Part shown: positions 29,287 to 46,037 of the stretch, piece by piece
How the letters are laid out: the number at the start of each line of letters is the position of its first letter
Numbering within the stretch: position 1 is the first letter of the stretch
Source: a bacterium
GTDB lineage: Bacteria; Patescibacteriota; Minisyncoccia; Moranbacterales; UBA2206
DNA length: 64,000 bases
Direction of reading: 5' to 3'
Assembly: GCA_021785125.1 (NCBI GenBank)
Contig: JAJYGF010000013.1
Location: forward strand, 41,413-105,412
Notes under the pieces: model-generated
What the model saw: only the letters and a program-made list of their open reading frames with translations
The model's database searches: none
Told to the model about the DNA's origin: nothing
Position numbers and translations under genes: made by a program

Positions 29287-30273
29287 ATGAAAAAAGCGAT
29301 AATCGAAGTTAGAAAATTGAATAAGACGTATGAATATTCCAATAAGAAGGAGGGTTTGAAAAATTCTTTCCGGGATCTTTTTAAACGGAAGAAGCTTTAT
29401 AAGCATGCCGTGAAAGATGTCAGTTTTGATATTCAAGAGGGTGAGTTGGTGGGTTTTTTGGGGCCTAATGGGGCGGGGAAAACCACGACTCTCAAGATGC
29501 TTTCCGGAATTCTGACTCCATCAAGCGGAGAGATGAAAATTATGGGATTTGATCCCTCTAAGCGTGAAGAAAAATATCAGATGCAATTCGCGTTTGTAAT
29601 GGGTCAGAAAAGCCAATTGTGGTGGGATTTGCCTGCTATGGAGAGCTTCATCTTGAATAAAGAAATTTATGAGATAAGTGACAAAGATTTTAAGGAACGA
29701 TTGGATGAATTTGTGGAGCTTCTGGATGTGAAGGATGTCATTTACAAGCAGGTGCGCCAGCTTTCTTTGGGCGAACGGATGAAATGCGAACTGATCGCCT
29801 CGCTTCTGCATGCTCCGAAAGTTTTGTTCTTGGATGAGCCGACGATCGGCATGGATGTGGTGGCGCAGAAAAACATCCGTGATTTCATAAAGAAATATAA
29901 CAAAGAGAAAAAAGTTACGATCATACTGACTTCTCACTATATGGAAGATATATTGCAGCTTTGTGAGCGCATCATTATCATCAATCTGGGCCAAGTAATC
30001 TATGACGGTCCGATGGATGCTTTGATAAGGAAATACGCGGCCAATAAATTGATCAGCGTTTCTTTTGAAAATGAGGTAAAATCCGAGGATGTGGAAAAAT
30101 TTGAATTTTTGAAGAAGTTTGAAGGAGCACAAGCATCTTTCGATGTACCCAGGGAAAAAGTCAAGGATGTGGCAAGAGAAATCTTATCTTCAAATCTACC
30201 GGTCAAGGACATCGATATCAGTGAAGAAGATGTTGACGCGATAATAAGAAATATTTATGTGGAAAAGAAATAA
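29287..30273 (+). CDS. ABC transporter ATP-binding protein
   Basis: Walker A GPNGAGKTT, signature LSLGERMK, Walker B LFLDEPT. Confidence 0.85.
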   Translation: MKKAIIEVRKLNKTYEYSNKKEGLKNSFRDLFKRKKLYKHAVKDVSFDIQEGELVGFLGPNGAGKTTTLKMLSGILTPSSGEMKIMGFDPSKREEKYQMQFAFVMGQKSQLWWDLPAMESFILNKEIYEISDKDFKERLDEFVELLDVKDVIYKQVRQLSLGERMKCELIASLLHAPKVLFLDEPTIGMDVVAQKNIRDFIKKYNKEKKVTIILTSHYMEDILQLCERIIIINLGQVIYDGPMDALIRKYAANKLISVSFENEVKSEDVEKFEFLKKFEGAQASFDVPREKVKDVAREILSSNLPVKDIDISEEDVDAIIRNIYVEKK

Positions 30274-43104: not shown

Positions 43105-43683
43105 ATGGAAAAATTGGAAATCGACAAAAACAGCACGGCTCTGGTGGTTATCGATCTGCAAAAAGGCATCGCCGGCATGCCGACCCAGCCGTATGCGGCC
43201 GAGGCGGTGATTGCGAACGCGGCTAAATTGGCGCAGGCATTCCGTCAAAATGACATGCCGGTCTTTTTGGTGCGGGTGAAACCTTCCGCCGATGCGCGCG
43301 ACGCGCTTAAGCCGGAAGCGGATGTGAAGATGCAGATGAATGCTTCCGCCATGCCGGCCGATTGGAGCGAGATCGTGCCGGAGATGGGGCCGGAGCCGAC
43401 GGATTTTCTGATCACCAAAAAACAATGGGGCGCTTTCTATGGCACCGAGCTGGATCTGCAGCTCAGAAGACGCAAGATCGGGGCGATCGTCCTATGCGGC
43501 ATCGCCACCAGCATTGGCGTGGAAAGCACGGCCCGGTTCGCGTATGAATACGGCTATGAGCAGATATTCGCCGAAGACGCGATGGCCAGCCGCTCAAAAG
43601 AAGAACATGACAGCACGATCAAAAATATTTTTCCGCGCATGGGCCGCGTCCGGAAGACGGAAGAAATTCTGGCGGAATTATAG
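43105..43683 (+). CDS. Isochorismatase-family cysteine hydrolase
   Basis: ALVVIDLQ Asp, Lys, and catalytic Cys in IVLCGIATSIGVEST. Confidence 0.75.
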   Translation: MEKLEIDKNSTALVVIDLQKGIAGMPTQPYAAEAVIANAAKLAQAFRQNDMPVFLVRVKPSADARDALKPEADVKMQMNASAMPADWSEIVPEMGPEPTDFLITKKQWGAFYGTELDLQLRRRKIGAIVLCGIATSIGVESTARFAYEYGYEQIFAEDAMASRSKEEHDSTIKNIFPRMGRVRKTEEILAEL

Positions 43684-43780
43684 AATTGAAAGATCCGTCG
43701 TTTGCGGGTGGTTTTTTATACACAGGGACAAAAGAGAGAAATAGTGATATGATAACACTATAATAAATAAAAACAAAAAA

Positions 43781-44329
43781 ATGATTGAAACAAAGCCGCA
43801 ATCAAGGCCCGGCTATGAATATCTGACCACCTACATGTTGGGGAAAGTCATCCAAGACCTGACCGTGGAATTTTGCAATCGCTGGATCGACAGGAAAAGC
43901 AGGACACATGATCAGATGGTCCAAGCGGCCAGGAGCAATCCGCAGAACATCGCCGAAGGGTACACGGTCGAATCACTCAAGAGCTACATCATGCTTGTCG
44001 GCGTCGCGCACGGTTCAAACGAAGAATTGGCCAAGGATTATCAAGATTTTCTACGGCAGAGAAATTTTCATATCTGGAGCAAGGACGATCCGCGAGTTAG
44101 GGTGTTTAGGGAATTTAGGGTGATTTGGGTTTCCCCAACATCCCTAAACACCCCAAAGTTGCCCAACAATCCCGAACAAGCCGCAAATTTTTTGCTCACT
44201 CTTTGCAATCTTGAAGGCTTCTTGATCAAGCGTCATGTCGATTCATTGAAGCTGAAACATGAGCGCGAAGGCGGTTTCTCGGAAAATCTTTACAGGAAAA
44301 GGATCGAATTCAGAAGAAGCGGCGATTAG
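43781..44329 (+). CDS. Four-helix-bundle protein (23S rRNA intervening-sequence protein family) with internal insertion
   Basis: QMVQAARSNPQNIAEGY...SYIMLVGVAHGSNEEL pattern; ~60 aa longer than typical due to G-tract/C-tract insert. Confidence 0.6.
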   Translation: MIETKPQSRPGYEYLTTYMLGKVIQDLTVEFCNRWIDRKSRTHDQMVQAARSNPQNIAEGYTVESLKSYIMLVGVAHGSNEELAKDYQDFLRQRNFHIWSKDDPRVRVFREFRVIWVSPTSLNTPKLPNNPEQAANFLLTLCNLEGFLIKRHVDSLKLKHEREGGFSENLYRKRIEFRRSGD

Positions 44330-44641
44330 TCATGTGCTATAATATAAACAATAACTATTAACAAACAAGTATGTCTATCGAAGCGATCATATTTTATCTC
44401 TTGCTCATCGATAGTATCTCGTGCAACCTGATCGTCCTGTTCGGCGAGAAATGGTACGTGAAGCATTTCCGCATCGTCTCGCGCCTGTTTCCGCCGGCCA
44501 AAGGCTGGGCCGCGTATTATCTGGTCCTGGTGCTGTGGATCGGAACGCTCATATATCGGGCCGGATTGTTCTAAGCAAAAAAGAGCTTTGGCTCTTTGCG
44601 GATAATATAAAAACAAAAAAAGAGAGGAGGTGTGATAACAC

Positions 44642-44893
44642 ATGGCAAAATTGAGCATCAAGGGATTGGCGTTGGGCTTCGGCCTCGCGTGGGGATTGTA
44701 TATGCTTTGCTTGGGCTGGGTCTCCGTGACCGGCTGGGGCGCCGGAATAGTGAGTAATTTTTCTTCTCTGTATATCGGATTTGCACCCGGATTTGTCGGT
44801 GGCATCGTCGGCGCCCTGTGGGGATTTTTGGACGGGGCGGTCGGCGGCATCCTGATTGCGTATTTCTATAACATGTTTGCGGCGAAAAAATAA
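44642..44893 (+). CDS. Small glycine-zipper (GxxxG-rich) membrane protein
   Basis: GAGGAGG RBS 11 nt upstream; 83 aa; two hydrophobic Gly-rich helices; terminator after. Confidence 0.4.
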   Translation: MAKLSIKGLALGFGLAWGLYMLCLGWVSVTGWGAGIVSNFSSLYIGFAPGFVGGIVGALWGFLDGAVGGILIAYFYNMFAAKK

Positions 44894-44981
44894 GCCGCGC
44901 CTCAGAACAACAAAAAGCTCGCAATTTTCTGCGGGCTTTTTGTTTCGAGCGCGTGAAGCGTGGTAGAATATAAATGTAATT

Positions 44982-46037
44982 GTGAAAAAAAGAGAGATGA
45001 TCTATCAGTTGATAATTTTTATTATTTCCGGCGCGTTTGTCTGGCTGGCCGGCACGACATTGACTAAGACGACTGATTCTTTGGATTGCCGCTTCAAGAT
45101 CGGAGAAGCTTTCGGCGGCCTGATCCTTCTGGGCATTACCGGCAATCTGACGGACATCGCGGTGGCCATCAGTGCCGCTTGGCGCGGACATATTCCGGTC
45201 GTCATCGGCAACTTGATCGGCGGCATTGCGATCCAGACGCTTTTGATCGTGATTTTTGATTTCGCAGTCAGGGGCAAGCGGCCGTTGTCATATCTGGCTG
45301 GATCGATGACCTTGTTTTTTGAAACGGTTTTCGCGATCGCGCTGGTCGTGATGGCGCTCGTCGGCACGTATATTCCCGCCAAAGATTCGATCTGGCACAT
45401 GAATCCGTTTTCAATCCTGATTCTGGCGGCGTGGTTCGTCGGACTGTATCTGGTCGACAAGGCGCACAAAATCAGGCGCTTCAACGAAGTGGAGAATGAT
45501 GCCGATCCTGGCCGGTCGCATGACGAATGCCGGACGACGGAGAACAGCGCTTTCTATTCCGGAAAGAAGACGTTCTATGTGATCAAAGTTTTTGTCCTGG
45601 CTTCCGCCGTCACTTTAGTCGCCGGCTATTTTTTGGAAGAATCGGGCGCAGCCTTGGCGGAATCGCTGGGTCTGAATGCGGGAATTTTCGCGGCTACGAT
45701 CTTGGCCTTGGTCACTTCCTTGCCCGAGCTCAGCACCGGCTTGGAAGCGGTCTTGATCGGCGACAATCATCTGGCCTTCAGTGATATCTGGGGCGGCAAC
45801 GCGTTCATGATGGTGCCGTTTTTTGCGGCCGATCTTCTGGTCGGCAAGCCGGTTTTGTCATACGCCCAAAACTCGGACCGTTTGGTCGCATTTTTGGGCG
45901 TCGCCATGATGGCGGCATACGCGGCCGCTTTTCTGGCGAGATGGCACAAGCGATATTTCCGTCTGGGTCTCGATTCCATCCTTGAGATCCTTATTTTCGC
46001 CGGCGGAATGGCGGTTTTGTTTGGAATCGTGAAATGA
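44982..46037 (+). CDS. CaCA-family Na+/Ca2+ (cation) antiporter
   Basis: Two alpha-repeats (GNLTDIAVAIS.. and LVTSLPELSTG), ~10 TM. Confidence 0.7.
   Translation: MKKREMIYQLIIFIISGAFVWLAGTTLTKTTDSLDCRFKIGEAFGGLILLGITGNLTDIAVAISAAWRGHIPVVIGNLIGGIAIQTLLIVIFDFAVRGKRPLSYLAGSMTLFFETVFAIALVVMALVGTYIPAKDSIWHMNPFSILILAAWFVGLYLVDKAHKIRRFNEVENDADPGRSHDECRTTENSAFYSGKKTFYVIKVFVLASAVTLVAGYFLEESGAALAESLGLNAGIFAATILALVTSLPELSTGLEAVLIGDNHLAFSDIWGGNAFMMVPFFAADLLVGKPVLSYAQNSDRLVAFLGVAMMAAYAAAFLARWHKRYFRLGLDSILEILIFAGGMAVLFGIVK

Follow-up and report, generated by a model that had tools for sequence, protein, structure and literature searches.

Within a 64,000-nucleotide stretch of a Patescibacteriota genome of the order Moranbacterales (GenBank assembly GCA_021785125.1, contig JAJYGF010000013.1, positions 41,413 to 105,412 of the forward strand; hereafter the window, with coordinates counted from its first nucleotide), the gene for a four-helix-bundle protein carries a block of G-rich repeat units followed by C-rich units of inverted complementary sequence. 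A preliminary description of this DNA had pointed to a telomere-like G-tract block and a mirrored C-tract block inside a coding sequence, and direct reading of the sequence confirms that both are real. On the basis of homologous sequences, our best reading is that the block is a conserved cis-acting nucleic-acid module of a Patescibacteria four-helix-bundle "suffix" gene. The features of the locus, with the evidence for each, are as follows.

43781–44329, plus strand: host gene, encoding a 182-residue four-helix-bundle "suffix domain" protein of the S23p/Avd-like family (open reading frame, profile matches)
44060–44170, plus strand: protein excursion between helices 3 and 4, residues ~94–130 (AlphaFold2 model)
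44096–44164, plus strand: zone of frozen synonymous sites, codons 106–128 (codon entropy)
44096–44129, plus strand: G block, unit starts 9, 9 and 10 nucleotides (nt) apart, encoding V-R-V-F-R-E-F-R-V-I-W
44096–44102, plus strand: G unit 1, GTTAGGG (sequence)
44105–44111, plus strand: G unit 2, TTTAGGG (sequence)
44114–44120, plus strand: G unit 3, TTTAGGG (sequence)
44124–44129, plus strand: G unit 4, TTTGGG (sequence)
44133–44176, plus strand: C block, inverted complement of the G units, unit starts 9–11 nt apart, encoding S-P-T-S-L-N-T-P-K-L-P-N-N-P-E
44133–44138, plus strand: C unit 1, CCCCAA (sequence)
44142–44148, plus strand: C unit 2, CCCTAAA (sequence)
44151–44157, plus strand: C unit 3, CCCCAAA (sequence)
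44162–44167, plus strand: C unit 4, CCCAAC (sequence)
44171–44176, plus strand: C unit 5, CCCGAA (sequence)
44100–44153, plus strand: predicted hairpin core, a 13-bp perfect stem (44100–44112 with 44141–44153) enclosing an inner G3/G4:C1 helix
44090–44170, plus strand: match to a covariance model built from 45 homologous blocks (90.3 bits, E = 3e-23)

Layout of the block in the window

Read directly, the block (44096–44176, plus strand) consists of four TTWGGG-type units followed by five CCCNAA-type units; the four G tracts counted previously therefore stand, whereas the four C tracts become five. The block lies in frame, as had been stated, and occupies codons 106–132 of the open reading frame (ORF) at 43781–44329 on the plus strand. 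Tandem Repeats Finder reports a 9-nt period in 3.8 copies over 44097–44130, and a repeat search finds inverted arms at 44097–44120 and 44133–44156 with 83% complementarity, within which GGGTGTTTAGGGA (44100–44112) pairs perfectly with TCCCTAAACACCC (44141–44153) over 13 bp. Matches to TTTAGGGNNTTTAGGG with at most two mismatches occur in the window solely at the block, where five overlap against 0.39 expected.

Canonical G-quadruplex (G4) motifs, meaning four tracts of at least three G with loops of 1–7 nt, number two on the plus strand and one on the minus strand across the 64 kb. Two of these three belong to the block (44100–44129 on the plus strand and 44142–44173 on the minus strand), so that the proposed G4 potential is present as sequence motifs on both strands. 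The block exceeds chance: 300 first-order Markov simulations gave on average 0.56 and 0.02 motifs, and none produced neighboring G and C motifs. The third motif of the window, GGGTTTTTTGGGGCCTAATGGGGCGGGG at 29451–29478 (plus strand), has the highest G4Hunter score in the window, 1.72.

The host protein and its interhelical excursion

The C-terminal part of the host protein (residues 131–178) matches TIGR04258, "four helix bundle suffix domain", at 47.8 bits against a cutoff of 40, and its N-terminal core (residues 38–84) matches TIGR02436 at 32.9 bits against a cutoff of 24. PF05635 is found in the same core, over residues 28–85, at 32.4 bits, just below the gathering score of 33.8; it is also the precomputed Pfam match of P0001, a protein identical to the host protein. 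In a homolog search, 7,990 of the 8,000 scored candidate proteins fell at E ≤ 0.001, and the best 120 matches are mostly 176–200 residues long. Named homologs are Patescibacteria (Parcubacteria, Moranbacteria, Woesebacteria, Gottesmanbacteria and WWE3), the closest named relative being in a Parcubacteria-group genome (L001; 81% protein identity).

An AlphaFold2 model based on a 22-sequence alignment, with a predicted local distance difference test (pLDDT) score of 88.3, places helices at residues 11–35, 41–62, 66–93 and 131–163. Between the third and fourth of these lies the excursion that the block encodes in large part, modeled with a short helix (104–110) and beta bridges (116–118 and 121–122) at pLDDT 91–94. 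The best solved folds in a Foldseek comparison are 2gsc and 2rld, S23p-family proteins of 108–117 residues (probability 1.00, E ~0.01–0.05; template modeling score 0.78–0.80, normalized to the target); a sequence search with the host protein against solved structures gave no match.

The preliminary description had proposed that the block adds ~25 residues absent from typical family members and is possibly an inserted repeat. Relative to plain four-helix-bundle proteins the excursion is indeed extra, by ~35 residues (~94–130), since the Pfam and TIGR02436 matches stop before it and the best folds are only 108–117 residues long; within the subfamily, on the other hand, the segment is universal. 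It aligns without gaps in 21 of 21 close homologs (65–85% identical), with the consensus DPRVRxFREFRAVWxSxTSLNTPxLPN and invariant R110, F112, W116 and L122-N123-T124-P125. Because every close homolog has the segment, and because it is modeled as an ordered excursion, a recent insertion is excluded, and we likewise rule out an insertion relative to the homologs.

Silent sites are frozen across divergent homologs

We collected 87 homologous loci from genomes and metagenomes (labeled L###; protein homologs are labeled P####) and aligned 58 non-identical coding sequences by codon; these are 53–73% identical to the window overall. Outside residues 106–128, all synonymous codons are in use at conserved Arg, Leu, Thr and Pro positions, and third-position entropy is ~1.8–2.0 bits. 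Relative codon entropy is 0.33 inside codons 106–128 versus 0.85 outside (Mann–Whitney p = 3e-5). Among the homologs, F109 and F112 are encoded by TTT in 52 of 52 and 51 of 51 sequences, respectively, and R107, R110 and R113 by AGG in 77–90%; in the C block, L122 is CTA in 90%, T124 is ACC in 98%, P125 is CCA in 81–87% and L127 is CTC in 74–76%. Constraint is also seen where the residue itself varies: the codons that follow the three AGG triplets begin with G in 45/53, 46/53 and 53/53 sequences while encoding V, E, G, A or D, and codon 126, which follows ACC-CCA, begins with A in all 53 while encoding K, N, T, S, I or M. Over the 81-nt block, mean column identity is 80%, and seven fixed bases alternate with two free ones along it.

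Codon use elsewhere does not account for this pattern. In the other long ORFs of the window AGG makes up 15% of Arg codons, CTA 3% of Leu codons, CCA 16% of Pro codons and TTT 53% of Phe codons, and the low share of AGG holds too for Arg codons preceding G-starting codons; genome codon bias or context bias can thus be ruled out as the cause, as the window's genome disfavors the block codons. The preliminary description had raised the case of homologs that encode the same protein segment with non-repetitive DNA, and the opposite was found, namely that the homologs share the repetitive DNA. Since the near-identity of the block in this gene extends to silent codon positions across many of these ultra-small bacteria, we conclude that the nucleic acid, as DNA or as RNA, has a function of its own, and we regard it as well established from these alignments that the nucleotides themselves are under purifying selection, beyond the encoded peptide.

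Pairing potential of the G and C blocks

Hairpin potential had also been suggested for the block, and its predicted fold agrees: the minimum free energy (MFE) is −33.9 kcal/mol as RNA (z = −3.07 versus dinucleotide shuffles) and −18.1 kcal/mol as DNA (z = −2.98), and against synonymously recoded versions the window block reaches z = −4.4. Homologous blocks have a mean MFE of −25.4 kcal/mol, compared with −15.8 kcal/mol for their synonymous recodings, and 68% of them lie at z < −2. When 45 sequences are laid out as an in-register hairpin (G4:C1, G3:C2, G2:C3, G1:C4), 85% of the cells pair. The inverted order, G then C, is kept in every lineage examined, including those with other units. The distant lineages L076 and L081 have a G block and then a complementary C block built on AGTAGGG and CCCTACT; L088, L090 and L097 have purine-rich 9-mers and then pyrimidine-rich ones; L095 has TTAGG/CCTAA mini-hairpins; and L098 has a quasi-palindromic GACAGGTCA repeat (Asp-Arg-Ser). 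A switch from TTTAGGG:CCCTAAA to AGTAGGG:CCCTACT equals two compensatory changes of a base pair, and in the protein it replaces Phe by Ser and Leu-Asn by Pro-Thr.

Several observations weigh against pairing as the selected property. The unit-switch evidence is limited to a few lineages, and within the main subfamily covariation was not above that of shuffles in either of the two hairpin registers tried; the RNAalifold consensus is weak (−4.1 kcal/mol). Both arms are simply conserved, and the sequence itself could therefore be what is read. Conservation extends to an A·C mismatch (TTTAGGG versus CCCCAAA) in two of the four helical segments. L025, L029 and L073 keep the C block after loss of the AGG codons or of the whole G block, and the predicted folds of L029, L037 and L072 are no better than those of recoded controls (z ~0). 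Mutual pairing is impossible in L065 and L070, where arrays of the C type stand at both gene ends, and in L090 the G units far outnumber the C units.

Further arrays of the unit around the gene

Pattern and covariance-model searches found no further copy of the block in the 64-kb window, the only other match being the palindromic self-match on the minus strand; the search for additional copies that had been recommended earlier thus returned a single copy within the 64 kb. With three matches in 236 kb of homolog flanks as well, a dispersed palindromic or mobile repeat, of the kind of Rickettsia palindromic elements, repetitive extragenic palindromes or miniature inverted-repeat transposable elements, is ruled out. 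In the homologs the covariance model likewise gives one match per gene plus the palindromic self-match, with extra sites near the 5′ ends in L018, L021 and L050. We then mapped arrays with a two-unit motif over 64 non-redundant loci, with the following result.

Linker (between helices 3 and 4): ~55 of 56 main-subfamily loci, G then C
5′ flank: 21 loci, 13 G-type and 8 C-type on the plus strand
Helix 1–helix 2 loop: 11 loci, all C-type
3′ flank: 17 loci, 14 C-type, 2 G-type and 1 with both
Remaining 236 kb of flanks: 3 matches, all in one locus

Loci with such arrays (TTRGGG plus 3 nt, or the complement, in the leader, the loop or the stop-codon end) include L016–L021, L050, L004, L005, L007, L062, L065, L066 and L070; the window's own gene has the linker copy only. 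In the clade of L016–L021 and L050 a second G block, ATTAGGGAATTTGGGGGATTTAGGG-like, stands at the gene start. In L016, L017 and L021 it is in frame as an N-terminal extension, while in L018 and L050 it stands in another frame or follows a stop codon, and the sequence is nonetheless kept. The leader block of L018 and L050 is noncoding yet unchanged, and it is therefore conserved as nucleotides regardless of coding. By eye, a TGnTAnAAT box similar to a promoter −10 element precedes the second G block by a few bases. A second C block takes the form of an insertion in the loop between helices 1 and 2 (KSPKDPTYPNF). G arrays in the 5′ leader accompany extra C units, in the helix 1–helix 2 loop or in an expanded linker block, in L016–L021, L062 and L081.

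In L005 a 5′ G array and a 3′ C array would form a duplex of −91.7 kcal/mol, versus −72.5 ± 5.2 for shuffles. The stop codon of this gene, TAA, belongs to the first CCCTAA unit. Within a gene, every array is built on the unit of that lineage: AGTAGGG in both leader and linker of L081, (AGAGGGGNA)n upstream of the gene and in the linker of L090, and units of the AAAGGG type in L097. L090 (1102–1250, 1252–2809) encodes a fused, 376-residue version of the protein whose linker holds ~14 AGAGGGGNA units, with a similarly long array upstream of the start, and the fused gene is directly followed by a separate bAvd-like four-helix-bundle gene (PF22296).

Variation and mobility

In pairs of sequences at least 95% identical, the number of units in the block is unchanged. 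No difference from the window was seen in four independent assemblies: their loci (L091–L094, from GCA_027428275.1, GCA_021833205.1 and two ENA metagenome assemblies) match it across the compared 1–2 kb around the gene (window 43105–46037). The preliminary description had entertained a recombination or phase-variation hotspot. Phase variation is not borne out, with no indels in the block among the pairs at least 95% identical and an in-frame period of 9 nt. Unit spacing keeps the reading frame, which makes frame switching impossible, and a phase-variable contingency locus is ruled out by the constant unit number in close strains together with a period that is a multiple of three.

Slower change is apparent. 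The C block gained 9-nt units over long times in one clade (L016–L021 and L050). In P0121, a protein of 147 residues, ...RQRNLP is joined directly to NDPTEAAN, the whole block having been deleted between two LP-N direct repeats, and in L073 the G arm alone is missing. Across the family at large, the length of this linker is hypervariable, and three-residue (9-nt) repeats such as DRS, KTY, GRT and RGV are abundant in it. L081 (1800–1838) and L082 (1470–1503) are 96% identical over an aligned 1.5 kb; L081 has a leader array, AGTAGGGAAAGTGGGGAGAGTAGGG, just before the ATG that is absent in L082. From the aligned sequences, an array with the linker's lineage-specific unit was here recently gained or lost. 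Near-identical copies of the gene with frame-breaking deletions of 10 nt and 22 nt occur in L084 (relative to L041, position 3227) and L083 (relative to L075, position 3479), respectively, and may be pseudogenes or assembly errors. On these comparisons the linker region is evolutionarily plastic and not a fast switch.

Neighboring tRNA genes

Of 44 homolog loci scanned, 21 have the "suffix" gene near particular tRNA genes (tRNA-linked loci: L008, L009, L011–L014, L032, L035, L036, L043, L047, L049, L051, L054, L061 and L075–L077). At 16 loci tRNA-Arg(CCT) and tRNA-Pro(CGG) are found within ~10–800 nt in varied order and orientation, and at 5 loci the gene is immediately preceded by tRNA-Pro(GGG) in the same orientation. 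The G block has AGG fixed at three positions, and this codon has tRNA-Arg(CCT) as its dedicated reader. The window gene has no adjacent tRNA. In L008 (3915–3995), L012 (3914–3992) and L049 (2910–2990) the start ATG of the gene directly follows, or overlaps, the 3′ CCA end of tRNA-Pro (...CCCCGACCAATGGAA, ...GACCATGGAA), leaving no room for a promoter or ribosome-binding site; judging from this arrangement, tRNA processing would yield a leaderless mRNA at these loci. A resemblance of the repeat units to tRNA-Pro acceptor ends or anticodon loops, judged by eye, was too weak to claim. Elsewhere in the window, at 44872–45038 just upstream of a Na/Ca-exchanger gene, weak sub-threshold Rfam matches to leader models of amino-acid operons (Thr, Leu and Trp; 18–28 bits versus gathering scores of 41–55) are probably due to chance.

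A proposed explanation and its alternatives

One explanation for these results is that the module consists of GGG-core units (TTTAGGG plus two free bases, 9-nt period) followed by their inverted complement (CCCTAAA or CCCCAA plus free bases), and that the G and C arrays pair, either within the RNA transcript or within DNA that is transiently single-stranded. For the window this predicts one imperfect hairpin of ~60–75 nt within the linker-coding stretch (helix 3 to helix 4). On the mRNA, the stem would serve for processing, for stabilization or as a translation brake, and its action would resemble that of the RNase III-processed stems that flank relatives of the host protein in rRNA intervening sequences. 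The element may be tolerated by the protein because it is sited in a surface excursion between helices, and the peptide at this position would have been co-opted into an ordered mini-domain. Weighing the folding and ordering of the arrays against the points listed above, we favor this pairing only tentatively, at somewhat less than an even chance.

An alternative scenario, a close competitor though less likely than not, is that the units are recognition sites of a sequence-specific factor, potentially the gene's own Avd-like product, which would bind repeats of the (TTTAGGGNN)3 or (CCCTAANNN)3 type in double-stranded DNA (as an operator or centromere-like site) or in RNA; structure would then be incidental and the inverted order a matter of convergent arrays. 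What is conserved is indeed sequence rather than structure, with seven fixed and two free bases, and the G and C blocks have been lost independently of each other. The arrays are tied to this gene, being nearly absent from the 236 kb of flanks; those in the 5′ flank occur in either orientation (13 G-type, 8 C-type), leader and linker share their lineage-specific unit in L081, L090 and L097, and precedents for such sites in or beside the gene of the binding protein exist in parS, located within spo0J, and in the omega repressor's heptad arrays. Recognition by a factor does not readily account for the strong orientation bias where coding does not dictate it: 3′ flank arrays are C-type at 14 loci versus G-type at 2, with 1 of both types, and the linker is always G then C, which together point to a strand-specific role at the RNA level. 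Nucleic-acid binding by this subfamily is moreover putative, and an operator inside a stretch that encodes an ordered mini-domain would be unusual.

A broader and more speculative possibility, which we consider unlikely, is that of a self-referential cassette, in which a single short unit with a GGG core, together with its complement, is repeated in arrays in the gene's leader, in two loops of the protein and at the 3′ end, the arrays co-evolving as a set between lineages. The arrays would then be a recognition or pairing code whereby the Avd-like product, or the machinery that processes the tRNA/rRNA transcripts carrying the gene, controls or propagates the cassette.

We give little credence to the earlier proposal that the G block forms a G4 and the C block an i-motif (or a template-strand G4) acting on transcription, translation or recombination. 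Canonical motifs with G3 tracts and 5–6-nt spacers are present on both strands of the block, which holds two of the three such motifs in 64 kb; GGG tracts are maintained through the choice of AGG and then GNN codons, and the flank arrays of homologs often have four or more tracts. However, four G3 tracts with loops of at most 7 nt are found in only 23% (plus strand) and 33% (minus strand) of 57 homologs, counts that rule out G4 formation as the conserved property. The fourth tract is TGG-A in about half of the homologs, the TTTA loop bases, which a G4 does not need, are conserved as strongly as the G tracts, and G4Hunter scores in the G block reach just 1.0–1.2.

Equally improbable is codon-level control, in which three UUU-AGG-G heptamers would serve as hungry-codon sites, causing pausing or an abortive +1 shift like that at Ty1 CUU-AGG-C and making expression dependent on tRNA-Arg(CCU). 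The conserved heptamer is UUU-AGG-G, AGG is a minority Arg codon in the window (15%), and both other sense frames stop within the block in 96% of sequences; the gene is also within a few hundred nt of tRNA-Arg(CCT) and tRNA-Pro(CGG) at 16 of the 44 loci scanned, with five more directly downstream of tRNA-Pro(GGG). This scenario nevertheless leaves the C block, the complementarity and the noncoding copies in leaders and 3′ flanks unexplained. Neither tRNA-Pro(CGG) nor tRNA-Pro(GGG), the neighboring species, reads CCA, which is the Pro codon most strongly fixed; the window and its nearest relatives lack an adjacent tRNA, and any +1 product would be abortive.

One may also postulate that the block is a functionless by-product, arising through replication slippage and quasi-palindrome correction in a tolerant loop, or from an old inserted palindrome like the in-frame Rickettsia palindromic elements. 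The hypervariable linker with its three-residue repeats across the wider family, the 9-nt C units gained in one clade, the deletion variants P0121 and L073, and the leader array present in L081 and missing from 96% identical L082 are all in keeping with such an origin. Neutral repeats, however, would not hold silent bases across lineages in which other synonymous sites are saturated (p = 3e-5), and there are no dispersed copies in the window, no change among close strains and only the three matches in 236 kb of flanks; we regard this explanation, too, as very improbable.

Slimmest of all is the chance that an overlapping antisense reading frame constrains the silent sites: one antisense frame is stop-free across the block in 96% of homologs (median 78 codons from stop to stop), and the window has a 53-residue antisense ORF at 44068–44229, but most of these frames lack an ATG, their ends are not conserved, the silent-site constraint spans ~22 codons and not 78, and copies of the unit also occur in noncoding leaders. 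Overlapping genes are ruled out more generally, as both other sense frames and two antisense frames are stopped in the block and the open antisense frame is without starts or conserved ends.

Implications

The block provides an unusually clear signal within coding sequence, with silent sites frozen over ~66 nt across divergent candidate-phyla bacteria. The host family is widespread, and the element offers a concrete handle both on this family and on its S23p and Avd relatives, the latter known from diversity-generating retroelements (DGRs). The repeat units point to likely interaction partners of the gene, its transcript or its product, and the tRNA linkage in many lineages suggests expression from stable-RNA transcripts. 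The locus also carries a caution for sequence scans, since a G4 motif of telomere-like sequence can arise by chance in one lineage, completing a conserved element that is selected for another property. If the cassette described above were real, it would represent an undescribed gene-plus-repeat system in Patescibacteria, one in which protein sequence is partly dictated by a nucleic-acid signal.

Comparison with known systems

Functional nucleic-acid elements that overlap coding sequence are known in general, and this one is previously undescribed in the searchable literature: searches on the suffix domain, PF05635 and TTAGGG repeats in bacteria of the candidate phyla radiation (CPR) returned nothing on the suffix subfamily or on a nucleotide-level element in it. 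A search of Rfam with the block gave no match at the gathering score, the best being a miRNA hairpin model at 34.6 bits versus 53. Avd being the accessory protein of DGRs, we considered whether the gene might be a DGR accessory gene (avd). The contig of L091 matches the window exactly across the 2 kb that were compared; on it, none of the six Pfam-annotated genes downstream of the gene (Na/Ca exchanger, ScpA, ScpB, peptidase, glycosyltransferase and PGK) is a reverse transcriptase, and the upstream gene is without a Pfam entry. The gene is in this respect unlike a DGR avd, and with no reverse transcriptase among these annotated neighbors and no second copy of the block in the window we rejected this candidate.

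The units share their core heptamer, TTTAGGG, and in the window the four GGG tracts, with the telomeric repeats of vertebrates and plants, (TTAGGG)n and (TTTAGGG)n. Unlike telomeric repeats, the window units have two free bases between them, which gives a 9-nt period; they are part of a bacterial reading frame, their own complement comes next, and the four-tract motif is not conserved in homologs. Rickettsia palindromic elements are in-frame selfish palindromes, and the block resembles them as a palindromic repeat translated in frame in a tolerant part of a protein; it differs in having no dispersed copies, one fixed position across a gene family, and silent sites under purifying selection.

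Cis sites in or beside the gene of the protein that binds them are known from parS, which lies within spo0J/parB, and from the heptad arrays of the omega repressor. The element is like these in being a short, nucleotide-conserved sequence in a coding region, with direct and inverted arrays of its unit near the same gene, and unlike them in the strong strand bias of the 3′ flank arrays; binding is here putative.

The last comparison is with the family of the host protein itself, the S23p/23S rRNA intervening-sequence protein/bAvd family (PF05635, TIGR02436; subfamily TIGR04258), to which the host protein is assigned by scores above the TIGR04258 and TIGR02436 cutoffs and by a fold like those of 2gsc and 2rld. 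The stems of rRNA intervening sequences are processed by RNase III. The stem in the window differs from these in lying inside a coding sequence, in a gene that is not within rRNA, and its cleavage is hypothetical. In both cases, however, inverted repeats are tied to a gene of the same protein family, and in L005 complementary arrays flank the whole ORF. ORFs for such S23p-family relatives, annotated as 23S_rRNA_IVP, are found inside rRNA insertions of CPR bacteria (10.1101/2024.02.27.582315).

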